Below, one piece after another: positions 2,358 through 62,204 of a DNA stretch of 64,000 bases. The stretch's first letter is position 1; every line of letters begins with the position of its first letter. This stretch comes from Alphaproteobacteria bacterium. Lineage in GTDB: Bacteria > Pseudomonadota > Alphaproteobacteria > CAAHEQ01 > UBA3637. The translations under genes were made by a program, and so were the position numbers. Location of the stretch: NCBI GenBank assembly GCA_045532865.1, contig JAZSGT010000028.1, forward strand, positions 18,507 through 82,506, given 5' to 3'. The notes below the pieces were generated by a model that worked only from the letters and a program-made list of their open reading frames with translations, had not been told where the DNA came from and ran no database searches.

Positions 2358-3362
2358 ATGAAAAAGATACTTTTATTATGTACTTTTTTGTGTTGTGCCA
2401 CGCCAGTAAAAGCTGATTTTGCTGATGCTGAAAATTATTTTACACAACAGGATTTTTCTCGTGCATTTTCAGAGTTTTTACCCCTTGCAAATAATGGGGA
2501 CTTTCGCTCGCAATATTATGTGGGCTATTTGTATTTAAATGGTTTAGGTGTTTCTCAAGATATAAGAGAAGCTATTCGTTATTTGAAAGATTCTGCCGAT
2601 CAAAATTATGATATGGCACAGGCTTTACTTGCTTTTTTATATGAAGAAGGGCATGCAGTACCACAAGATAAAGAAAAGGCATTGGAGCTTTATAAGTTGG
2701 CTGCTGCTCAAAGTAATGCTTCGGCAAATTTGAATCTAGGGGTGATGTATTATAATGGTTCAAATGTTGAAAAAAATCATAGTGTTGCATTGGAGTATTT
2801 TAAAAAAGTTCCATTAGAGGAAAAGCCAATTGTCGCTCGTTATATTGGGGATATCTATTTAAATAACGTTGATTTAAAAGATTATAGAAGTGCGTTGTAT
2901 TATTATTCAGTTGCTGCTGCTACGGGTGACTTAGATGCTTTTTTTGCATTAGGTGAAATTCATCGTAAGGGTTTAGGTGTTCCAAAAAGTGTAACAAAGG
3001 CACTTCCTTATTACAAATATGCTGCATCAAGAGGTTATGCGCCTGCTCAGTATATGCTTGGAATTGTTTTTGCAAATGGTGATGGTGTTACCAAAGACGT
3101 TGGTAAAGCTTATGCGTGGATTTCATTTGCAGCTGAGCAAAAGTTTATTAATGCGGAAAAAGCAATTGAACAACTTTCAGCCAACATGTCAATTTCTGAT
3201 TTTGACCAAGCACGGCGCCAGATTGCATTGATACAAGATAATGAAATGGGAAAAATGGCAATGCCTGTTATTTCTAAAGTTTCATTAAAGTCGGACGAAA
3301 AACAAACTCATAATAAAGCAGGAAATAGACGGCGTAGAGGGGTTCGTTCTAGGAGGAAATAA
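2358..3362 (+). CDS. Sel1-repeat (TPR-like) protein with signal peptide
   Basis: Repeated Sel1 motifs (AxxxYxxAAxxGxxxAQxxLGxxY...G); N-terminal signal peptide; basic C-terminal tail. Confidence 0.8.
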   Translation: MKKILLLCTFLCCATPVKADFADAENYFTQQDFSRAFSEFLPLANNGDFRSQYYVGYLYLNGLGVSQDIREAIRYLKDSADQNYDMAQALLAFLYEEGHAVPQDKEKALELYKLAAAQSNASANLNLGVMYYNGSNVEKNHSVALEYFKKVPLEEKPIVARYIGDIYLNNVDLKDYRSALYYYSVAAATGDLDAFFALGEIHRKGLGVPKSVTKALPYYKYAASRGYAPAQYMLGIVFANGDGVTKDVGKAYAWISFAAEQKFINAEKAIEQLSANMSISDFDQARRQIALIQDNEMGKMAMPVISKVSLKSDEKQTHNKAGNRRRRGVRSRRK

Positions 3363-26682: not shown

Positions 26683-26705
26683 TTATTTGTAAATAAAAAT
26701 AAAAA

Positions 26706-26754
26706 AAATACTCTAATTTGTTTTTTTGTGGGGTAAATTTTAGAGTATTTTTTA
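26706..26754 (+). terminator. terminator-like long hairpin after the nitroreductase gene
   Basis: atactctaa ... ttagagtat (9-bp stem, 23-nt loop) followed by T5. Confidence 0.45.
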
Positions 26755-26786: not shown

Positions 26787-26815
26787 TTGACGTTTTTTTG
26801 AAAATTTGATATCCT
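26787..26815 (+). promoter_or_regulatory. sigma70-like promoter of the Cys-rich pilin-like operon
   Basis: ttgacg (26787-92), 17-nt spacer, tatcct (26810-15); about 50-nt leader to the ATG at 26873. Confidence 0.55.
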
Positions 26816-26872
26816 AAACTTAGGGGGTATTTGCGCCTAGTGTTTGTTGTATCTGAAAAGAAGGGGACGCTG

Positions 26873-29647
26873 ATGCAAGTAAAACGATACAAAAATGGCC
26901 AATCTGGAAGAAGTATGTTGGAAATGCTTAGCGTTTTGGCAATTCTTGGAATTTTGTCAATATCAGGTATTGTGGGGTATCAATATGCGATGCGTCTTTA
27001 TCGTATTGCTGAAACATATGATGAGGTGAGTGTTACTATTTCAGGGGGTAGAACGTGGCCTGTTTTGGAGCATTATGGTCCTTTAACAAAAGTTGCGAAT
27101 GAAACAGGTGCTCCTTATCCACATGCAGATACATTAGCTTATAACGTTCCAATTCGAGAAGTTGTTTCAAAAGTAAATTATCGAAATGCACTAACAGCTG
27201 CAGAAGCATTGGGTGAAAGTGCGACTGATTATTATGAAAGACGTGAATATGAAGCGTTTTCATCCAAAATATTTGCACCTGTATGGGTGCGGGCAGAAAC
27301 ACCTGAAGCATGGTCTGTTCGTGTAACTGGGCTTTCATATGATATGTGTGCTTCTCTTGTTACAAAAAGGGAGTTGGGCTATCAATATGTTTATGTTGCT
27401 TTAAATGATGATAGTGGAAATCCGGTTGATCCAAATTATTGGGATTTTCCACTTGTAACAAGTTATTCAAATAGCGATATAAAAGATCATGATAAGGTAA
27501 AGGCTCTTTGTGAAGCAATTGATCCAGGGCATAGATCTGTTCCTCCTGCCTATACCTTTCAAAAAAATATTTCTCTTTTGAATAAAGATGGTTCCAATAT
27601 TACTTCAGTTGGGGAATGCAAAATTGAAAATGGTGTTCCTTCTGTTCGTTGTATGGCATTTAGTGCCCGTGTGGATAATGCGCCATTACAAACATTGGTT
27701 TTTTACTGGGGAGCAAAAGCTGAAGATGAGCCTATTCCTTTTGAAACGTGTAGAGCTGGTACAATGTATGATGGGGATGGTAATCCAAGTCAATATTGTT
27801 GTGAAACAGAAGCTAGGGGTCTTTGGATTGATGGTCCAGATATTTGTTGTGCTTTAGGTGAGAGTTTGCCATCACCTGAAACTGTTCAAATTGCTGGCAA
27901 ATATTATAGATTAGATCGTGATTTGACTGGTAAAAACACGGATGGGAACGATGAACCACTTTGTGATGATACCCCTCCCACGGATAACTGTTGTATTGGT
28001 GGAACACCATGGTATGTGGGAGATGATCCAGCAAACATTAGGGGAGCTTGTAAAGGAAACTGTCCTTCAGGTCCTGTATCAGCAACTGTTCCTAACAGAG
28101 TAGAACACAGTTGGTGTTGTGAGACTCAGGCTGGTGGAATATGGAAATTAAGACCAGGAAGCCCAAGTAATGCGAGACTTCCACTTTCTTCATCTCCAAA
28201 GTCCCCTTTAAACGGAAGCGGAGGTGCCTTGTGTTGTTGGGGAGGCAGTGGCAGTGTTTTAGCATATGACAGTTCAAATCCAATGTCTTGTTTTGCACCT
28301 AATGTATGGAGTAAAAAACCACCAACATTGGTTACAGGGGTTGTTAATCATCCGTTGAAGAATACGGGTATGTCTTGTACAAAAAAAGGACCTAATGGTG
28401 GCACATCTTCAGATTCAGATGATGATGACGATGATGATTCAACAAAAACCTGTCCAACTGGTTATACATACAGTGATGCAGCTGATTCTACTGGAACAAT
28501 CCCTGCACCAGGTTGTATACAGCAGCAAACTGCTATGGGTTACTATTGGTGTTGTCCAGATGATTCAACAAATTCAAACTCGAGATCTGTTGATAATTCT
28601 TTAGGAGATGGATCTTCAAAGTCTCGTTCATATTCTAACAATTCAGATTTCAATGATCCAGATTCCGGAGGTTCTGATTTTAATGATGACGATTCTTGTA
28701 TTGTTCAGCCTCCTTTGCCACCCTTAGATATATATGGAAATGAAAATACTGATTGTTGTCCAACAGAAAAGAAAAACGGAACTTATCAAATAAATCCATA
28801 TGTTGGTGCAAAAAAAGTTTCACCAGCTTGTTGTGATGCAATACCAAATATGACAACAGTTTATGGCAAAGGTGGTGATCGGTTCTGTAATTCAGAATGT
28901 TGTAATAGTGGAGAAATTAAAGAAGGATTTGCAAATTTTCAAAATGATCCAACAGCATCTAGGTATCGCTCTGGTATCTTTGTAAACGCCAAAGGGGCTT
29001 CAGTTCCATCAATGTGTTGTCAGTTGTTGGATGCAAATGGCTCTTCATCAAAATTCCAACATCCAGAATGTTGTGAAACTGATTTAGCTCACGATGTTGG
29101 AGATGAAGCTGGTCGTTGGGTTGGTATAGGTGAGATTACATTAAATATCACAGTTTATGATACAGAGACAGGAACATGCACTTATCAAATGATTTCAAGT
29201 GCTAAAAATGCTTGTTGTAAGAAAAATGAAAATGGGTATGATATTGAGTGTAATGAAAATGTTTTCTGTTGTGGAACCGATCAAGAAGAAAATAAAAAAT
29301 CAGAAGTTTGCTGTCCGTTAGTTACAGGACATTATTGGAATGCAGAAAAAGGAGAATGTACGCCTTGTAGTGTTCCTGTTGATGGATGTGGGCCTTATTG
29401 TGAAGAAGTTGGTGAACACTGCTGTATTAAAGATATAAATGGCTGTTCTGAACCATATGCATGGGCTCCAAGGGGTGTAACCTCTTCTTCTAGTGGTGTT
29501 TATATCGAACAATCCTGTTGCCATGAGTGTATAAATGATACAGGTAAAAAGTTCATTGGCTTTACAAAAGCAGCATATGATAAAAAAGATAGAATTATTG
29601 GTGATTGTTATAATGGCTTTACGCTGAGATCGTCAACTAAACATTAG
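26873..29647 (+). CDS. giant cysteine-rich type IV pilin-like (prepilin N-terminal cleavage/methylation domain) protein
   Basis: RBS aagaagggga followed by ATG. N-terminus is MQVKRYKNGQSG|RSMLEMLSVLAILGILSISGIVGY, with Glu at +5 after Gly. The next ~230 aa are Cys-poor. The following ~650 aa hold about 51 Cys, including about 18 CC doublets (CCETEARGLW, CCETQAGGIW, CCPDD, CCPTE, CCPLVTGHYW). There is a poly-Asp run SSDSDDDDDDDS and an SDFNDxDS tandem repeat. Confidence 0.7.
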   Translation: MQVKRYKNGQSGRSMLEMLSVLAILGILSISGIVGYQYAMRLYRIAETYDEVSVTISGGRTWPVLEHYGPLTKVANETGAPYPHADTLAYNVPIREVVSKVNYRNALTAAEALGESATDYYERREYEAFSSKIFAPVWVRAETPEAWSVRVTGLSYDMCASLVTKRELGYQYVYVALNDDSGNPVDPNYWDFPLVTSYSNSDIKDHDKVKALCEAIDPGHRSVPPAYTFQKNISLLNKDGSNITSVGECKIENGVPSVRCMAFSARVDNAPLQTLVFYWGAKAEDEPIPFETCRAGTMYDGDGNPSQYCCETEARGLWIDGPDICCALGESLPSPETVQIAGKYYRLDRDLTGKNTDGNDEPLCDDTPPTDNCCIGGTPWYVGDDPANIRGACKGNCPSGPVSATVPNRVEHSWCCETQAGGIWKLRPGSPSNARLPLSSSPKSPLNGSGGALCCWGGSGSVLAYDSSNPMSCFAPNVWSKKPPTLVTGVVNHPLKNTGMSCTKKGPNGGTSSDSDDDDDDDSTKTCPTGYTYSDAADSTGTIPAPGCIQQQTAMGYYWCCPDDSTNSNSRSVDNSLGDGSSKSRSYSNNSDFNDPDSGGSDFNDDDSCIVQPPLPPLDIYGNENTDCCPTEKKNGTYQINPYVGAKKVSPACCDAIPNMTTVYGKGGDRFCNSECCNSGEIKEGFANFQNDPTASRYRSGIFVNAKGASVPSMCCQLLDANGSSSKFQHPECCETDLAHDVGDEAGRWVGIGEITLNITVYDTETGTCTYQMISSAKNACCKKNENGYDIECNENVFCCGTDQEENKKSEVCCPLVTGHYWNAEKGECTPCSVPVDGCGPYCEEVGEHCCIKDINGCSEPYAWAPRGVTSSSSGVYIEQSCCHECINDTGKKFIGFTKAAYDKKDRIIGDCYNGFTLRSSTKH

Positions 29648-29659
29648 GGAGATAGAAAA

Positions 29660-30832
29660 ATGAAGAAATGGACATACAAAATAATGGCAATTTTTTTCAT
29701 CGTTAGTTCTGTCTCTTGGCAGGCATTAGGTGCAGTTGATTGTCAAAAAGTTTATAATAATATTGATTTAGAGTATAATTTAAACAATAAACCTGCTTCA
29801 GCCAAATGTTGTGTTGATATGTGTGGTGGAGTAGGTGGTCTTGACAATACAGGGGCTTGTTGCTGTGGGCCAAGATGTGCAGGAGATGATCCTTCAACCG
29901 AACCAACAGAACCACAAAATTGTGAAGAAGAAATAATGTGTTGCTTTGATGAGCCAGAATATTATGATAAGCATCCAGATTGTTGTGAGTTAAATGATAA
30001 ATATGAGTTTGTGGCAAGCTATTATGAGGATAGTTGGGGTGACCTTTCTAAATTAAGACCTGAAAGTCAGTGTTGTATTAAAGATGAACCTAAGAATGTA
30101 AGTGGACAGGTAACAAAAACTTGTTGTGAAGGTTTAATGGGCTCTTATAGAAATGGAAACGTCTGGGCAGGTTCTTCTAGTTCTGAAAGTGGAAATCCTT
30201 CCAGTGTTGGAGATGGTGATGAAGCTTGTTGCAAACAAGGATATCCCTACAATTATGCTGGAGAGATGACTGGGCCATGCTGTGAACTTTATGGAACGGA
30301 ACTCAAGTTTGATAAACCCGATAATACACATGAACAAACAGATCTGATAAAGCATTGTCATTTTTATGAAGACAATACACTGAATGTATCAGCCTGTTGC
30401 GTTAAAGGAAGTCGAAGGTTATGTGATAGCAATTCTGAAGACGAATATAGAGGGGCTCCGAGTTTTATTTGTTGTTATGCTGCACAAGGAGAAGTTTGGG
30501 TTAAGGTTAAGGATGAAGGAACTGAGAGATGGGAGCCTGCTAAAGGGAATATTGGTACGCATAAAAACATTGAACATGATTCTACTGCATGGAAGTGCTG
30601 TACAACATTTGGTTACAGAGGTGTTGGTGCAACCGATTGTACACCAAAAGATGGTGTTACAAGCGATTTTGATGATATAGATTGCAGTAAAGTGGTTAGC
30701 AATTATAATCCAAATTATAACTTAGAGCATAGAGCTGAAGCAACAGCTTGTTGCCAGGATTTCTGTGGGTCTTCAGGTTTTATTGATGATACGGGAACCT
30801 GTTGTTGTTCTCCTGGATGTGGTGGGGGATAA
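29660..30832 (+). CDS. cysteine-rich (CC-doublet) secreted protein, partner of the pilin-like protein
   Basis: RBS gggagat. Sec signal peptide MKKWTYKIMAIFFIVSSVSWQALGA. 38 Cys in 390 aa. Terminal modules are AKCCVDMCGGVGGLDNTGACCCGPRCAGDD near the N-terminus and ACCQDFCGSSGFIDDTGTCCCSPGCGGG at the C-terminus. Confidence 0.7.
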   Translation: MKKWTYKIMAIFFIVSSVSWQALGAVDCQKVYNNIDLEYNLNNKPASAKCCVDMCGGVGGLDNTGACCCGPRCAGDDPSTEPTEPQNCEEEIMCCFDEPEYYDKHPDCCELNDKYEFVASYYEDSWGDLSKLRPESQCCIKDEPKNVSGQVTKTCCEGLMGSYRNGNVWAGSSSSESGNPSSVGDGDEACCKQGYPYNYAGEMTGPCCELYGTELKFDKPDNTHEQTDLIKHCHFYEDNTLNVSACCVKGSRRLCDSNSEDEYRGAPSFICCYAAQGEVWVKVKDEGTERWEPAKGNIGTHKNIEHDSTAWKCCTTFGYRGVGATDCTPKDGVTSDFDDIDCSKVVSNYNPNYNLEHRAEATACCQDFCGSSGFIDDTGTCCCSPGCGGG

Positions 30833-31737: not shown

Positions 31738-31949
31738 ATTTTTTCCTTCCATAATATTTCACACATTATATTTTATAGACTATTCTAGATAAAGATATAC
31801 GAAAAGTCAAAAAAAAGCAAATGACACTTTTATGACAGTTGTAAAATAAAGGCTAGTAGCTCAAAATGAGCGTTTTTTTTGTTTTTGTCTGGTTGACTTT
31901 TATTGAAAATAAGTGTATTATTTTTCAACATAATTTAAAGGAGTATAAT

Positions 31950-33722
31950 ATGAAAGCTGCTGAGTTAAGAAAAAAGTTTATCGATTTTTTTGTTTCAAAA
32001 AATCATGTGGAGATTAAAAGCGCTCCATTAATTCCTGATAATGATCCAACTGTTCTTTTTACAATGGCTGGGATGCATCCATTGGTTCCGTTTTTGTTGG
32101 GCGCTCCTCATCCAGCTGGGAAGCGTTTGGTTGATTTTCAAAAATGTATCAGAACAGGTGATATTGAAGAGGTGGGTGATAAGGTTCATTTAACTTTTTT
32201 TGAAATGCTTGGTAATTGGTCCATTGGTGATTATTTTAAAAAAGAAGCAATAGAATATAGTTTTGAATTTTTAACAAGCAAAGAATGGCTAGGACTTGAT
32301 TTAGATAAATTAGCATTTACTGTTTTTGCAGGGAATGCGCATGCTCCTTTTGATGAAGAGGCTTATAATACATGGCTTTCATTGGGTGTTTCTCCAAACA
32401 AAATTGCAAAACTGGAAGCAAACTGGTGGGGTCCAGCAGGGGTAACAGGCCCTTGTGGTCCAGATACAGAAATGTTCTATTGGACTGGCTCAGAACCAAC
32501 ACCAGAAGTTTTTGATCCAGAAAATCCTCTTTGGGTCGAAATTTGGAATGATGTTTTGATGCAATATAATAAAAATGAAAAAGGCGAGCTTGAAAAGTTA
32601 GCCCATCCAAATGTTGATACTGGTATGGGTTTTGAACGTGTTGTTGCTGTATTAAATGGATTTGACAGTTGTTATGACACAGAACTTTTCGTTCCATTAT
32701 TTGAAGCGTTGGATAAATTCCGTGGTATTGAAACGCCTTCTGAACGGACGAGAGAAGAACGCATTATTATTGATCATGCAAGAGCTGCCACGTTTATTAT
32801 GGCTGAAGGGATTACTCCAGGGAATAAAGATCAACAATACCAATTGCGCCGTATCGTTCGCAGAATGTTAGGGGAAGGGCATAAATTGAATTTAGCTCCA
32901 GGTTTTGCATTACCTGTTGCTGAAAAAGTGATTGAAATGTATCAAGGATATTATCCAGAACTTGCTAAAAACAAAGAACTTATTTTATCAGCTTTTGAAT
33001 TGGAAGAAAAAGATTTTTCAAAAACACTTGTTCGTGGTGTTCAAATGTTTGAAAAAGCTATTCAAGATGAAAAAAATGTTCAAAATGGCGTTTTAAGTGG
33101 TTTGGTTGTTTTTGATTTGGCTCAAACATTTGGGTTCCCAAAAGAAATGGCTGTTATGATGGCTGAAGAAAAAGGTCTTAAAGTGAATTTAAAAGAATTT
33201 GATGAAGCCTTTAAACACCATCAAGATATTTCTCGTGGGGCATCTGCTCCTTGTGGTTTAGCTGATAAAAAAGAAGAAACAACAGCACTTCATACAGCAA
33301 CACACTTGTTGCACCAAGCACTCAGAACAGTTCTTGGAACTCATGTGGAGCAACGTGGTTCTCACATTACAGCTGAACGGTTGCGTTTTGACTTTTCTCA
33401 TCATGAAAAAGTTTCTCCAGATGATTTGAAAAAAGTTGAAGATCTTGTCAATGAGGTTATTCAAAAAGATATGCCAGTTCTGTGTGAAGAAATGACTCTT
33501 GATGAGGCTTTACAAAAAGGAGCAATTGGTCTTTTTGCTAATAAGTATGGTGAAAAAGTAACTGTTTACTCTATGGGTGATTTTAGTAAAGAGGTTTGTG
33601 CAGGTCCTCACGTAACAAATACTGGTGTTTTAAAATCATTCCATATCATGAAAGAGGAAAGCTCTAGTAAAGGTGTTCGCCGAATAAAAGCAACGGTAGG
33701 ATTTGTGAAAAACAATGCATAA
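31950..33722 (+). CDS. alaS: alanine--tRNA ligase, compact form (lacks beta-barrel linker and C-Ala domain)
   Basis: AlaRS class II catalytic core (FTMAGMHP, GDYFK, WGPAGVTGPCGPDTE, DTGMGFERV); editing-core HTATHLLH and CAGPHV motifs present; only about 590 aa; RBS aaaggag. Confidence 0.85.
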   Translation: MKAAELRKKFIDFFVSKNHVEIKSAPLIPDNDPTVLFTMAGMHPLVPFLLGAPHPAGKRLVDFQKCIRTGDIEEVGDKVHLTFFEMLGNWSIGDYFKKEAIEYSFEFLTSKEWLGLDLDKLAFTVFAGNAHAPFDEEAYNTWLSLGVSPNKIAKLEANWWGPAGVTGPCGPDTEMFYWTGSEPTPEVFDPENPLWVEIWNDVLMQYNKNEKGELEKLAHPNVDTGMGFERVVAVLNGFDSCYDTELFVPLFEALDKFRGIETPSERTREERIIIDHARAATFIMAEGITPGNKDQQYQLRRIVRRMLGEGHKLNLAPGFALPVAEKVIEMYQGYYPELAKNKELILSAFELEEKDFSKTLVRGVQMFEKAIQDEKNVQNGVLSGLVVFDLAQTFGFPKEMAVMMAEEKGLKVNLKEFDEAFKHHQDISRGASAPCGLADKKEETTALHTATHLLHQALRTVLGTHVEQRGSHITAERLRFDFSHHEKVSPDDLKKVEDLVNEVIQKDMPVLCEEMTLDEALQKGAIGLFANKYGEKVTVYSMGDFSKEVCAGPHVTNTGVLKSFHIMKEESSSKGVRRIKATVGFVKNNA

Positions 33723-34555: not shown

Positions 34556-34631
34556 TGATTTAATTTGTTAAAAAAGAGTTTTTATGGTAAAATAAAAATA
34601 TGTGATACAAAAGAAAATAGGGGAATGGTCT

Positions 34632-36203
34632 ATGGCTGATAATAAAATGCTTTCACTTCAAGAAAAAAGAAAATTAGCAAGTTGTTTTGATTTAAGCTTA
34701 TTATCTCAAGATGATAGAGAATTTTTTTATTCCATATTATATAATCATTTAGATGAATTCCCTATTTTAACCATGCTTGCAAAAGATGTGATGAATGGTT
34801 CAAATAAAAAAATATTTATTAATGTGAAAAAGTTAGATTCTAACATAAATGGGTATCAAGGCAATGGTGAAATTTGTTTTTCAACGCAATTATGGCATTC
34901 TTGTAAACAAAAAAAAGATACAAAAAGAGCGGCTTCTACATTTTGGCATGAGATTATGCATGCAATTCAGCAAGATAAGTTGACTTATTCCTATTCAAAA
35001 AGAGGATATATGGTGTATCGTCAATTTATTGAAGCTGAAGCAATGAGTTATTCTAATTTGATGGTGCCTAGGTGCGAATTTGAAGATGAACTTTATAAAT
35101 CAATTTTAAAAGATTCACCATCTAAGTTTGAGGCTCAAAAAAGATATATTGCTGTTTCTACAAGATTACGTTTAAATGCTGATAGAGAACTGGCAAAATT
35201 TGATGCTCAAAATATTATGGGAAAATATTTTTCAGAATCAAAATGGGAAGATTCTGAAAAATATACAATCAAAGGTTGGCGTGATTTTTATTATAAATAT
35301 CACCAAGATTATGCTAAAAATATATGGGAAACAAAAGGAAGCTATGATAACAAATTAATTTCAGAAAGTGAAAAATATTTTGAAGACAGATATGGTATTA
35401 AAATTTCTGCAAAAGCAGCTATTTCTGAAGATGTTATTAATAATTATGGCTTATCAACTGGAATATTAAATACACGTATTATAAAGTTAAATGATGCAGA
35501 AGTTTTTGAAATTTCTAAATGGCGAGAACTGTCAGATAGACATGGTAATAAAGCATATACATTGGATATGCCAAATATGGATCCATCTTATATTAATGAT
35601 GTGTATGGGCATATTCTTGCAAATGGAATTCATGTTAAAAAGACGTATGCAATCCATAGAGATGGGTTTTCATCAAGATTACTTCAGATTGTAAATACAC
35701 CTGAAAATATTAAAAAGTTTATTGAAAAATGTGAGACATCAAAACAACCAAAAGTAAGAGAAGATATTTGGCCTAAACCAGATGAAAGAAAATGTGGCTA
35801 TGGTAAGCAAATTTTTAATAATGCTATTATTGCTATTGATGTTGAAAATCCTCCCATTTTTCAAGTTGGAAAATACAAGAATATTAGTGTTGATTTTAAT
35901 GAGTTCCTTTCCCCTAAAAATAAAAAGTTTTTAAAAGAAGGTGGTTTGATTTTTGTTGGTAAGCATCCAGATTCGTTAGCGATTGATCTTCCAAAAGAGG
36001 TGATGGATAAGGCTTGTAAATATTGTGCTTTTAAAGAAAGTGATCCAACTGTATCTCGATTGCAAGGATACTTGTTTGTTGATAGGGAAGGGTTTCTTTG
36101 TTACAAAGAGTGCTCAACAAATGGTTCGTTTGTTCAACGGGGTAATCCAAATAGATTAAACCAATGTAAAAATCGAGAGCAATATTCTATGTCAACAAGA
36201 TAA
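34632..36203 (+). CDS. hypothetical protein with HExxH (WHEIMHAIQ) zincin-like motif
   Basis: 523-aa ORF from the ATG at 34632 (GTG at 34602 also possible). HEIMH followed about 30 aa later by EAEA, gluzincin-like. No signal peptide. Confidence 0.5.
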   Translation: MADNKMLSLQEKRKLASCFDLSLLSQDDREFFYSILYNHLDEFPILTMLAKDVMNGSNKKIFINVKKLDSNINGYQGNGEICFSTQLWHSCKQKKDTKRAASTFWHEIMHAIQQDKLTYSYSKRGYMVYRQFIEAEAMSYSNLMVPRCEFEDELYKSILKDSPSKFEAQKRYIAVSTRLRLNADRELAKFDAQNIMGKYFSESKWEDSEKYTIKGWRDFYYKYHQDYAKNIWETKGSYDNKLISESEKYFEDRYGIKISAKAAISEDVINNYGLSTGILNTRIIKLNDAEVFEISKWRELSDRHGNKAYTLDMPNMDPSYINDVYGHILANGIHVKKTYAIHRDGFSSRLLQIVNTPENIKKFIEKCETSKQPKVREDIWPKPDERKCGYGKQIFNNAIIAIDVENPPIFQVGKYKNISVDFNEFLSPKNKKFLKEGGLIFVGKHPDSLAIDLPKEVMDKACKYCAFKESDPTVSRLQGYLFVDREGFLCYKECSTNGSFVQRGNPNRLNQCKNREQYSMSTR

Positions 36204-41402: not shown

Positions 41403-41767
41403 AATGTCAGACAATCTATAAGCCGGGTTTTGTAATCGATAATCATTCGTCTGGGATAAACATTACTGTTTACCTCTAGCGACCTACCTCTTGAGAGCAG
41501 ATCAGAAACGCTCTTTTTACAAAGAAAATCTTTGGCTCTCTTCACTTGGTCTTGCTTCCGATAGGGCTTGCCGTGCCATTTTAATCGCTTAAAATGCGGT
41601 GAGCTCTTACCTCGCCGTTTCACCCTTACCAATTAAAAAATTGGCGGTTTGTTTTCTATGGCGCTATCCCGTGGGTCACCCCAGCTGGACGTTATCCAGT
41701 ATCGTGTTTCCGTGAAGCCCGGACTTTCCTCCAAAGTTGCCTTCAGCGATTATCCGATCGTCTGACG
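41403..41767 (-). ncRNA. rnpB: RNase P RNA (bacterial type A)
   Basis: The minus strand contains GGAGGAAAGTCCGGGCTTCACGGAAACACGATACTGGATAACGTCCAGCTGGGGTGACCCACGGGATAGCGCC...GGTAAGGGTGAAACGGCGAGGTAAGAGCTCACCGC...ACAAAACCCGGCTTATAGATTGTCTGAC. Both universally conserved P4 strands (AGGAAAGTCCGGGC and ACAAAACCCGGCTTA) are present. The 5' and 3' ends are complementary (P1). Confidence 0.85.
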
Positions 41768-53324: not shown

Positions 53325-53570
53325 ATGGAGCAAAATGAAAAAAATTATCAAAAAGAAAATTACGCATTGGGTGATGGTTCCTTTTTGTCTGAACGACAAG
53401 TAGCTGTTTTAAATCAATTGGCGCTTGGTTTATCAAATAAGCAAATTGCGCATGTTTTAGGTGTTGCAGAACCAACGATAAAAATGCATGTGAGTTCGTT
53501 ATTGAGGGCTTTTAAAGTTCAAAATCGTGTTCAAATTTTATTAAAAGCCAAAGAAAAAGATTTTGTGTAA
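53325..53570 (+). CDS. LuxR-family helix-turn-helix protein (stand-alone HTH)
   Basis: LSERQVAVLNQLALGLSNKQIAHVLGVAEPTIKMHVSSLLRAFKVQNRVQ matches the LuxR/GerE HTH signature; RBS aaggagg. Confidence 0.6.
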   Translation: MEQNEKNYQKENYALGDGSFLSERQVAVLNQLALGLSNKQIAHVLGVAEPTIKMHVSSLLRAFKVQNRVQILLKAKEKDFV

Positions 53571-53602
53571 TGCAAAGGAACAAAAAAACAGGCAAGTTTA
53601 AT

Positions 53603-53637
53603 GACTTGTCTGTTTTTTTATGTATATTTTTGATAAT
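53603..53637 (+). terminator. rho-independent terminator
   Basis: acaggcaagt ttaatg acttgtctgt followed by T7. Confidence 0.7.
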
Positions 53638-53740
53638 TGTATTTGTGATTATTTTTATATTTTGGGGTAAAAATAAATTGCTTTTGCCCTTAAAATTTGG
53701 TACGTTAAGAAAAGTAAAAAATAAATTTAAAGAGGGTTAT

Positions 53741-55381
53741 ATGATTAAATCACATTCATTTTTGTTTGGAGCTATTGTTTCAACTTTGGTATTATATAGT
53801 GGTTCAGAAGCTTGGGCAACACAAAATAACCAAACTGTGCCAACTCAAACAGAACAACAAAAAAAGATTCAAGTTCCTGTTTATTCAAAAGAGGATGTTA
53901 TTTTTCATGAAGGTTTATTTTTGAAAAAGACTGATAAACAGCCTGTGAATGGTGTTCTTCAAGCAAAATCAGAGAGTGGAAAAGTAATTGCACAGACATT
54001 TTTTTATAATGGTATGCCTCATGGGGAGAGTGTTACGTTTTATGATAATGGGAAAACTAAAACTCATGAAAAATATAATCAAGGCCGTTTGCATGGAAAA
54101 TCAGTTTCTTATTATGAAAATGGTAAAATTTTAAACGAATCCTATTTCTATATGGGTAGACCTGAAGGTAAATCAACAGTTTTTTATGAAGATGGAAGTG
54201 TCAAGTTTGAAACCATGTATAAAAATGGGAAGAAAAATGGGGATGATAAAGCCTTTTTTGAACAAGGAAAACCCATGTTGTTGCGCCATTATACAGATGG
54301 TGTTTTAGATGGACCTGTTAAAGAATACTATCAAAATGGTAATTTAAAGGGTGAGGGAGTATTTAAAAAAGATGGACCCGAAGGTATTGTGAAAACATAT
54401 TATGAAAATGGTAAATTAAGAACAGAGGAAATGTACGTTAAAGGTAAAAAACAAGGGCCTTCTAAGTCATATTATGATTTTGGACAATTGATGCAAGAAG
54501 AAAATTATGAAAATGATTTGTTGACGGGTATTGCTAAAAATTATTATGAAGATGGTCGCATTGAAAAAGAGGCTACATATCAAAATGGAAAACAAGAAGG
54601 GGCTGTGAAAGTTTATTATAACACAGGACAAATAAAACTGGATGCGATTTATAAAAATGATTTGCCACATGGAAAATTAACAACATATTTCTTAGATGGA
54701 AATATTCAAACAAGTGTTGAAATGGTTGATGGCAAATTGAATGGAAAAATAGTTGAATATTATGAAAATGGACAAATTGCTTTAGAAAAAAATTACAAAA
54801 TGGGATTAGAAGATGGCCCTGTAATTGCCTATTATGAAAATGGGAAGAAAAAAATGGCAACCATTTTTAAAGATGGTAAAAAAGAAGGGGAATTTGCAAA
54901 TTTTTATGAGGATGGTTCTCAAAGTACACGAACAATGTTTAAAAATGACAAACCTCATGGTGAATTCAAACAATATTATCCAAATGGACAGCTCAATGTT
55001 GAAGGCGCATATATCGATGGTAAATTAAATGGAGTACAAAAAATTTATTACAATACAGGAAAGCTTCAAAGTGAAGATTTTTACAAAAATGATTTGCTAG
55101 AAGGCGAAAGTAAGACATATTATGAAAATGGTGTTTTAAGAAGTACTTCTTATTTTAAAGAAGGGAAGAAACACGGTAAGGCACTCATTTATGATGAAGC
55201 TGGGACATTGATTTTAGATATGACATTTGATATGGACAATTTAGTTGCTGCTAAAACTAAAAAAATGATGGATGATGAAGCAGCAGCTACTGGTGAAAAA
55301 AAGGTTGAAGCAAAACCAGCGATAGAAAATAAAGAAACTGCATCTATTCAAAATAAAGAATCTATAAAGACAACGAATTAA
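53741..55381 (+). CDS. MORN-repeat-variant (YwqK-family) repeat protein with signal peptide
   Basis: More than 15 tandem YYENGKL/KNGK.EG...YYENG repeats; signal peptide MIKSHSFLFGAIVSTLVLYSGSEAWA; start set after the upstream terminator, with an aagaggg RBS. Confidence 0.65.
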   Translation: MIKSHSFLFGAIVSTLVLYSGSEAWATQNNQTVPTQTEQQKKIQVPVYSKEDVIFHEGLFLKKTDKQPVNGVLQAKSESGKVIAQTFFYNGMPHGESVTFYDNGKTKTHEKYNQGRLHGKSVSYYENGKILNESYFYMGRPEGKSTVFYEDGSVKFETMYKNGKKNGDDKAFFEQGKPMLLRHYTDGVLDGPVKEYYQNGNLKGEGVFKKDGPEGIVKTYYENGKLRTEEMYVKGKKQGPSKSYYDFGQLMQEENYENDLLTGIAKNYYEDGRIEKEATYQNGKQEGAVKVYYNTGQIKLDAIYKNDLPHGKLTTYFLDGNIQTSVEMVDGKLNGKIVEYYENGQIALEKNYKMGLEDGPVIAYYENGKKKMATIFKDGKKEGEFANFYEDGSQSTRTMFKNDKPHGEFKQYYPNGQLNVEGAYIDGKLNGVQKIYYNTGKLQSEDFYKNDLLEGESKTYYENGVLRSTSYFKEGKKHGKALIYDEAGTLILDMTFDMDNLVAAKTKKMMDDEAAATGEKKVEAKPAIENKETASIQNKESIKTTN

Positions 55382-61630: not shown

Positions 61631-61815
61631 ATTGCCTCCTTTTGGTTGTTTATAAAAAAGATAGAGCATAACGTTTTGAAAATCAATATAGATTTTATAA
61701 CTAAAAATAATGTAAAAACATAATAAATTCAAAGGGAAATAAAAAAAACATAAAAACAATAAAAAAAGTATTGCATTTTTTAAAATAAAAGTGTATAAAT
61801 ACAACATCTTACGAT

Positions 61816-61891
61816 GACCCCATCGTCTAGAGGCCTAGGACATCGCCCTTTCACGGCGGTAACCGGGGTTCGAATCCCCGTGGGGTCGCCA
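61816..61891 (+). tRNA. tRNA-Glu (anticodon TTC), CCA encoded
   Basis: GACCCCATCGTCTAGAGGCCTAGGACATCGCCCTTTCACGGCGGTAACCGGGGTTCGAATCCCCGTGGGGTCGCCA. Confidence 0.9.
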
Positions 61892-62181
61892 ATAAAAACC
61901 ACCGAAGGGTGGTTTTTTTTATGGCGAAATTCAAACGGGGGCAAGAACCCCATAGGTGTTCAGTCGCGAAGCGTAAGCGAAGTGGACGCCAGAGGTGGTC
62001 CGAAAGGACGAGCGTTAAGCTCGCAATCCTCAGTGGGGTCGTGGGTAAAAACCACCGAAGGGTGGTTTTTTTTATGGCGAATTTCAAACGGGGGCAAGAA
62101 CACCATAGGGGTTCGGTCACGAAGCGTAAGCGAAGTGGACGCCGAAAGGCGGTCCGAAGGGACGAGCGTTAAGCTCGCAAT
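61876..62181. repeat. tandem direct repeat (2 copies of about 153 bp, roughly 90% identical): tRNA-Glu 3'-end remnant, terminator hairpin, and a ~105-nt GC-rich element
   Basis: Copy 1 spans 61876-62027 and copy 2 spans 62028-62181. The second terminator copy is at 62047-62075. Each copy's element includes a GTCC-GNRA-GGAC hairpin. Confidence 0.8.
61893..61921 (+). terminator. rho-independent terminator after tRNA-Glu
   Basis: aaaaaccaccgaagggtggtttttttt. Confidence 0.8.
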
Positions 62182-62204
62182 TTACATATTCTGATTATAA
62201 AATA

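Follow-up and report, generated by a model that had tools for sequence, protein, structure and literature searches.

A 924-residue alphaproteobacterial protein with a prepilin-type signal and arginine at position 1 is probably a modular type IVb pilin

Is a protein of 924 residues that begins like a type IV prepilin, with arginine as the first residue after the predicted cleavage site, really a pilin, and if so, of which kind? The question is raised by an open reading frame (ORF) on the forward strand (26873..29647; ATG at 26873, stop codon ending at 29647) of a 64,000-nucleotide stretch of contig JAZSGT010000028.1 from an uncultured gut alphaproteobacterium, hereafter called the window. The N-terminus of its product reads MQVKRYKNGQSGRSMLEMLSVLAILGILSISGIVGYQYAMRLYR. 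We conclude, with a probability of roughly 0.6, that it is a modular type IVb pilin, probably the tip subunit of a pilus resembling the bundle-forming pilus (BFP), which would display a disulfide-rich binding module. The protein divides into the following parts:

26873..26908, + strand: predicted leader peptide MQVKRYKNGQSG, 12 residues, net charge +3, ending in Gly12 (position -1)
26909..26980, + strand: predicted mature N-terminus and hydrophobic helix alpha1N RSMLEMLSVLAILGILSISGIVGY, from hidden Markov model (HMM) scores, alignment and an AlphaFold helix
26909..27727, + strand: predicted type IVb pilin module, residues 13-285, with a 49-residue alpha1 helix and an alpha/beta head
27749..29644, + strand: cysteine-rich C-terminal region, residues 293-924, with 51 Cys and 16 CC doublets

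Type IV pilins are defined by a hydrophilic leader that ends in Gly or Ala, followed by a hydrophobic stretch of 20-25 residues that usually has Glu at position 5 (PMC10191384). The 924-residue protein has both: its leader ends with Gly12 (codon 26906-26908), and Arg13 (26909-26911) opens a hydrophobic stretch of 24 residues (R13-Y36) with Glu17 at +5 (26921-26923). The class III (prepilin-type) layout of basic leader, terminal Gly, Glu+5 and hydrophobic helix, which had been proposed in a sequence-only reading of this DNA, is thus confirmed. It is kept in all 14 full-length homologues that we aligned, in which G12, R13, M15, E17, L19, V21, L28, G32, I33 and G35 are invariant, and the motif is present in 161 of 168 collected relatives, with a median leader length of 12 residues across the family. 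This conservation shows that the motif is not a chance match. When the N-terminal 60 residues are scanned alone, they score above the cut-off of the HMM TIGR02532 (18.6 against 16.3 bits).

The ATG at 26873 is preceded by a ribosome-binding site, read from the sequence:

26860..26867, + strand: ribosome-binding site GAAGGGGA, 5 nt before the ATG at 26873

Homologues, whose loci were found by an alignment-based genome scan (a single-sequence scan gave none), share this start position, and the DNA around the ribosome-binding site translates as KKGT[LV]M, which is kept in the homologous loci L001, L002 and L004 and reads EEKGTLM in L003. In-frame stops lie 5-6 codons 5' of the corresponding ATG in L001 and L004 and exclude, in those loci, an extension to the TTG at 26831, which had been entertained as the true start; we have dropped this candidate. 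The NCBI model of the protein (P0001, 910 residues) begins at Met15 (26915), thereby dropping the leader, Gly-1 and Arg+1. As residues 1-14 are conserved in every homologue, we rejected this start too and regard it as most likely an annotation error. The database relatives P0026 and P0035 are truncated at the N-terminus in the same way, and automated start calling therefore seems to clip the prepilin-type signal of Arg1 pilins systematically.

Among the 161 motif-bearing relatives, Gly occupies position -1 in every sequence and Glu position +5 in 160, and the +1 residue is Arg in 159 and Lys in two; this census draws on the best 150 hits to a profile that itself contains Arg, so that the sample is biased towards Arg. 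Arg+1 is thus, as far as these sequences tell, a hallmark of the family and not an accident of one protein. The sequence-only reading had singled out this residue as atypical; it is indeed present, but near-invariant among the relatives rather than peculiar to this protein. Position 1 is known to vary among type IVb pilins and is Met in TcpA (PMC10710030); compared with the Arg seen here, it is Leu in BfpA (KG/LSLIE, read from the sequence; the slash marks the cleavage site here and below). A literature search for pilins with Arg at position 1 returned nothing relevant.

The segment that follows the signal has the predicted fold of a type IVb pilin. An AlphaFold model of the N-terminal 285 residues, built on 12 homologues, reached a mean predicted local distance difference test score (pLDDT) of 81 and a predicted template modelling score of 0.79, and contains a continuous helix at residues 13-61, which starts exactly at the predicted mature N-terminus and leads into an alpha/beta head. 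This is the 'lollipop' shape of pilins, with an alpha1 of about 50 residues and a globular head (here about 225 residues after alpha1), and the best structural matches of the model are pilins. In a Foldseek search with the full-length model, the top 14 chains were type IVb pilins. Comparison of a sequence profile of the module with PDB sequences gave weak matches, six of ten to pilins, with residues 146-220 matching the TcpA head around its conserved cysteines; in the module itself, Cys159 and Cys213 are invariant and Cys249 and Cys260 nearly so.

Type IVb pilins differ from type IVa pilins in their variable residue 1, the lack of Pro22 and helix-deforming glycines that include Gly14 (PMC10710030). 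In mature numbering, our protein has Arg1 (not Phe), Glu5, Gly14, Gly20 and Gly23, and Val22 in place of Pro22, and it agrees with the type IVb class in all three traits as well as in its head-domain fold and sequence homology. The long leader often taken as a type IVb trait is missing, the leader having 12 residues; according to Pelicic, leader length does not discriminate pilin classes (PMC10191384).

A profile search of 1.84 billion representative proteins returned 5,349 hits at E<=1e-3, of which 1,509 remained at E<=1e-10. The sequences examined are of two kinds. Small members have about 200 residues and start ...GRSM[VI]EMLGVLAIIGVLSVGGIAGYSKAM; large members, with 400-1,549 residues, share this N-terminus and add cysteine-rich C-termini. 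Named records of the large proteins read 'hypothetical protein', and a search of the literature found none on them. Profile-profile comparison of the large-protein module with 29 small G/RSM pilins gave a probability of 99.8% (E 3.5e-29, 139 columns), with an alignment that extends into the head domain, up to a ...GL..EAC... motif. Given that the match reaches the head, we regard the N-terminal module of the large protein as a diverged member of the bundlin-like pilin family.

The small relatives reside in recognizable pilus operons. One of them, P0099, matches the Pfam families Bundlin (PF05307) and PilS (PF08805) and lies in a cluster with the order TcpQ, secretin, PAP_PilO, an unknown gene, T2SSE, T2SSF, four pilin-like genes, three of which carry the G/RSM N-terminus, and a 321-residue T2SSE. 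A tblastn comparison shows collinearity with E. coli bfpG-B-C-D-E...F, and the roles read accordingly as TcpQ/BfpG, secretin, BfpC/PilO, BfpD ATPase, BfpE platform, pilins and BfpF ATPase. P0099 is 30% identical to BfpA, with ...EKG/LSLIE opposite ...QNG/RSMVE and the cleavage sites in register; the leader of BfpA is short, like the 12-residue leader of the 924-residue protein. Searched against all plasmid records, P0099 matches BfpA and entries annotated 'type 4 pilus major pilin' or 'pilus assembly protein'. The small G/RSM relatives score above the cut-offs of both Pfam models and sit in bfp-collinear clusters, and their alignments with BfpA cover, according to the comparison made, about 75-97% of each small protein; the large module is homologous to these small pilins, with a head domain that is bigger than those of BfpA and PilS.

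The platform protein of the P0099 cluster is very common in public data, its named sources being 'Alphaproteobacteria bacterium', 'Proteobacteria bacterium' and 'Proteobacteria bacterium CAG:495'. The two BFP-like clusters (L011 606-13207 and L016 3246-13616) belong to gut Alphaproteobacteria of the CAG-495 type with about 46% G+C, and an uncharacterised gene of 572-585 codons lies 5' of the TcpQ-like gene in both. Large and small members also meet in one locus: in L005, a large-family member of 518 residues adjoins two G/RSM pilins of 167 residues. In L007, about 10 kb of one contig separate a large-family member from a PilT/BfpF-like ATPase gene. We discarded this ATPase as a route to a pilus cluster, as it is an orphan beside EF-Tu and NusA in relatives and no cluster was reached from it. 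In low-G+C relatives, the gene of this orphan ATPase (about 410 residues) is flanked by the rimP-nusA-infB operon and EF-Tu and is remote from pilus genes (L007 19571-20395, minus strand; L017 10001-11233); its product is called 'TadA' in one source's annotation.

Two other assignments were considered for the N-terminal module. The sequence-only reading had spoken of a pseudopilin and suggested a comparison with those of the type II secretion system (T2SS); no T2SS genes were found, the structural and sequence relatives are all type IVb pilins, and the related clusters resemble bfp and include a retraction ATPase. A T2SS pseudopilin is therefore unsupported, and the evidence points to a BFP-type type IVb pilus. 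A Tad/Flp pilin was also rejected, since the G/xxxxEY motif of Flp pilins is missing, position +6 holds Met and not Tyr, and the protein is far too large.

The C-terminal region (residues 293-924) is built of recurring CC-x(12-16)-CC modules, for example CCETEARGLWIDGPDICC, with an acidic, Asp/Ser/Asn-rich stretch of low complexity in its middle. It has no Pfam match even at E<=10, and the Foldseek search with the full-length model gave no structural match outside the pilin module. The mean pLDDT of that model is 56.6, the C-terminal region being of low confidence: values lie below 50 at residues 367-525, 565-606 and 885-924 and between 55 and 82 at roughly 290-365 and 610-740. The idea that the pilin is 'cargo-bearing' is thus unproven, the region having no recognisable domain. 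Nearly all large relatives have similar CC-rich C-termini with 5-23% Cys, and the 14-homologue alignment shows much weaker conservation there than in the pilin module. Several relatives (P0025, P0031, P0044, P0045 and P0046) carry long, mucin-like Thr/Pro-rich tracts instead of or beside CC repeats, which would fit surface-exposed, possibly glycosylated stalks.

The same kind of sequence recurs in the product of the next gene:

29660..30832, + strand: partner gene, starting 12 nt after the large gene; product of 390 residues with 38 Cys, 13 CC doublets and a Sec-type signal peptide

This partner, which has no Pfam or NCBIfam family match, consists of the same CC modules as the C-terminal region of the large protein, and the two genes are probably co-transcribed. 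It lies directly downstream of the large gene in L001-L004 as well, with 36-59% identity (12849-13832 in L001, 12975-13952 in L002); CC-rich relatives sit one gene farther downstream in L007-L009, with a weaker case in L010. A CC-x3-C-x11-CCC-x3-C motif is near-identical at both ends of the partner (residues 50-73 and 364-387). As the same CC...C...CCC...C motif forms a mid-protein insert in some large homologues (P0004-P0008), this distribution suggests a shuffled mini-domain.

Among characterized proteins, close parallels in architecture are CofB of the enterotoxigenic Escherichia coli CFA/III pilus and TcpB of the Vibrio cholerae toxin-coregulated pilus, each the single minor pilin of its type IVb pilus, which combine pilin modules with extra C-terminal domains, form trimers at the tip and start assembly (PMC7248040). 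Like them, the 924-residue protein has a Glu5 pilin module followed by a C-terminal extension, here of 640 residues. It differs in its length, about twice theirs (PDB chains of 496 and 390 residues), in Arg at position 1 and in the position of its gene in a housekeeping neighbourhood rather than a pilus operon. Structural similarity to TcpB and CofB is confined to about 122 residues of the 285-residue model of the pilin module with which the search was made.

Modular pilins are widespread, with PilB and PilC of Streptococcus sanguinis as examples (Raynaud et al. 2021, PMC8179133). The 924-residue protein shares their architecture, in which the C-terminus of a pilin module bears a grafted functional module, supposedly displayed at the tip to serve adhesion. 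The Raynaud set was found through IPR012902 plus a known second domain, and the large Arg1 family escapes both criteria; moreover, its members are type IVb rather than type IVa and reach 1,549 residues, compared with an extreme of 860 in that set (PMC8179133). As its second module has no Pfam or NCBIfam domain, the 924-residue protein is 'modular' by architecture only. A further parallel is PilV, the thin-pilus adhesin of R64 (IncI1 plasmids); this minor pilin of the type IVb class owes its binding specificity to a variable C-terminal part. In the large Arg1 family, too, the C-terminal parts are much more variable than the pilin module; unlike in the PilV system, no shufflon or recombinase is nearby, the gene is chromosomal with vertically conserved synteny, and the C-terminal region is far larger and rich in cysteines.

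Taken with the established biology of type IV pili (PMC10191384), these data suggest the following course. The signal recognition particle and Sec would insert the precursor into the inner membrane by means of its class III signal, with the leader in the cytoplasm, and a prepilin peptidase would cleave between Gly12 and Arg13 at the cytoplasmic face. The mature subunit with Arg1 and Glu5, possibly modified at its N-terminus, would then be extracted from the membrane by BFP-like machinery and incorporated into a type IVb pilus as a low-abundance, probably tip-located subunit, the bulk of the protein making this position the most plausible. Its disulfide-rich CC-repeat region of about 640 residues would be displayed outside the cell as a binding module, presumably with an adhesive function, and the secreted CC-rich partner may act together with it. 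The sequence-only reading had held that pilins of some 900 residues are rare and usually minor or tip pilins: a minor or tip subunit is still the most sensible view, and the size, unusual as it is, has precedent in the widespread modular pilins (PMC8179133).

Several observations weigh against this interpretation. The HMM evidence for a prepilin signal would by itself be borderline: although TIGR02532 passes, PF07963 scores just below its cut-off on the same 60 residues (17.5 against 21.2 bits), and neither model was reported when the whole 924-residue protein was scanned. Likewise, the Pfam models Bundlin and PilS stay below cut-off for the 924-residue protein. The CC-repeat region is unlike the beta-repeat or lectin-like domains of CofB and TcpB. 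In known pili only the N-terminal amine pairs with Glu5 and the N-terminus is buried (PMC10710030); the side chain of Arg1 adds a second positive charge beside this amine, and packing as in known filaments is therefore not guaranteed. The locus is a housekeeping neighbourhood (ParC, RlmN, FabI, AlaRS), and the clustered operon typical of type IVb pili is found around the small relatives and not around the 924-residue gene. The 64-kb window contains neither pilus machinery nor another prepilin-like N-terminus, and Peptidase_A24 was not found in it, in the related loci examined or in the stretches examined of the two BFP-like clusters, which look complete. The window was searched by tblastn with Bfp proteins (including BfpP) and those of L011, by Pfam on ORFs with multiple transmembrane segments and by a GxGDxK motif scan, which missed BfpP itself and is thus uninformative. 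In the clusters (L011 606-13207 and L016 3246-13616), no BfpP/A24 gene lies within or adjoining. Classical type IVb operons include a dedicated prepilin peptidase (PMC10710030); judging from these clusters, the enzyme of these lineages must lie elsewhere or differ from known ones.

The missing peptidase gene and the position outside any pilus cluster would equally suit a membrane anchor derived from a pilin, in which the signal stays uncleaved and holds the cysteine-rich region in the periplasm or envelope with no pilus involved; Arg+1, too, would accord with the positive-inside rule for a stable anchor. A plain anchor, however, needs neither Gly-1 nor Glu+5, whereas cleavage and pilin docking require these residues, and both are conserved (161/161 and 160/161, respectively). 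The full pilin head fold is also retained and conserved, and complete BFP-like clusters have no pilins other than the small relatives that share this N-terminus, which must hence be assembled there. We therefore judge an unprocessed anchor unlikely, though its chances are not negligible.

A different role for the partner gives rise to another explanation. Type IVb pili secrete proteins that bind a minor pilin (TcpB-TcpF, CofB-CofJ), and the pilin module might similarly nucleate a short pseudopilus-like fibre that exports the downstream CC-rich protein, as would befit the conserved, tight two-gene operon with its signal-peptide-bearing partner. Given that no T2SS genes were seen and that the partner has no detectable similarity to TcpF or CofJ (no Pfam hit), we assign such a secretion device only a small chance; it also overlaps with the modular-pilin interpretation. 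Finally, a chance resemblance of an ordinary Sec signal or transmembrane helix to a prepilin signal, or a true translation start at Met15, would agree with the sub-threshold PF07963 score, the whole-protein scans without an N_methyl domain and the NCBI model, but is hardly credible in view of the TIGR02532 score above cut-off, the conservation of the residues before Met15 in all homologues, with Gly12 and Arg13 invariant, and a downstream domain with a type IVb pilin fold and homology to bundlin-like pilins.

If the 924-residue protein is a modular type IVb pilin, its kind, a modular or minor type IVb pilin, is already known. The new features are a basic residue at position 1 that appears to be invariant throughout a very large family of pilins, a cysteine-rich C-terminal repeat region without family assignment, a conserved CC-rich secreted partner and a location away from any pilus operon. 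Recognition rules for type IV pilins assume a hydrophobic residue 1, and thousands of sequence clusters carry Arg1; standard annotation labels the large members 'hypothetical' or trims the signal, as happened to the 924-residue protein at NCBI. Should pilins with Arg1 assemble, they would test current ideas on the neutralisation of the N-terminus and Glu5 in the filament core, and on the substrates that prepilin peptidases and their methylase domains accept. The pairing of a conserved pilin carrier with cysteine-rich modules of high variability and a secreted partner of like kind makes a colonisation or aggregation system plausible, and the large Arg1 family probably supplies a surface-binding repertoire of abundant uncultured gut Alphaproteobacteria.

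A broader scenario is tentative and, in our view, well short of an even chance. Gut Alphaproteobacteria of the CAG-495 type and related lineages may have a distinct type IVb branch in which every pilin has Arg1, with dozens of giant CC-repeat pilins of up to about 1,500 residues and secreted CC partners forming a colonisation system. Such a branch would place a guanidinium group in a filament core that is normally hydrophobic, where it might take the place of the salt bridge between amine and Glu5 or add to it; as its clusters contain no peptidase gene, the branch might need a non-canonical processing enzyme. A literature search on pili of RF32 or gut Alphaproteobacteria found nothing relevant.

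The homologues of the 924-residue protein come from metagenome-assembled genomes labelled Alphaproteobacteria, and the named sources are ruminant gut (roe-deer colon, yak rectum and sheep rectum). The homologous loci have 34-38% G+C, compared with 33.5% in the window. The gene order ParC, IalB-like, RlmN, nitroreductase, large pilin, CC-rich partner, FabI and AlaRS is kept in L001 and L002, and this synteny argues that the large pilin gene is vertically inherited within a housekeeping region and does not belong to an island. Upstream of the large gene lies a possible promoter:

26787..26815, + strand: candidate sigma-70-like promoter, TTGACG-17 nt-TATCCT, the -10 preceded by TG; upstream of the ATG by about 58 nt

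This candidate sits within a 190-nt AT-rich gap 3' of the nitroreductase gene and is a consensus match only, such sites being no commoner in the region than in shuffled sequence. Just past the nitroreductase stop, at 26705-26751, an inverted repeat with perfect 12-bp arms (AAAATACTCTAA ... TTAGAGTATTTT) and a loop of 23 nt is followed by a run of T. It is probably the nitroreductase terminator, which would insulate that gene from the pilin operon; a simple terminator scan missed this hairpin because its stem is AT-rich.

Further features of the window were noted in passing. The alanyl-tRNA synthetase (31866-33722) is a short form of 618 residues that best matches NF002436/PRK01584, the TIGR00344 alaS profile having 847 positions. 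A protein of 533 residues with 11 Cys (34602-36203) has no Pfam match; in L001 and L002 the corresponding position in the gene order holds ORFs of similar size, and the N-terminus (...CFDLS...) encoded at L005 10449-11996 resembles it, by eye only. The window also encodes a 603-residue MORN-repeat protein (53570-55381) and a 334-residue Sel1-repeat protein with a signal peptide (2358-3362); both kinds of repeat are often linked to host interaction. The ORF at 61814-62194 overlaps a tRNA-Glu gene (61816-61891) and is probably spurious, and the RNase P RNA gene lies at 41403-41765 on the minus strand, adjoining a tRNA-Pro gene.

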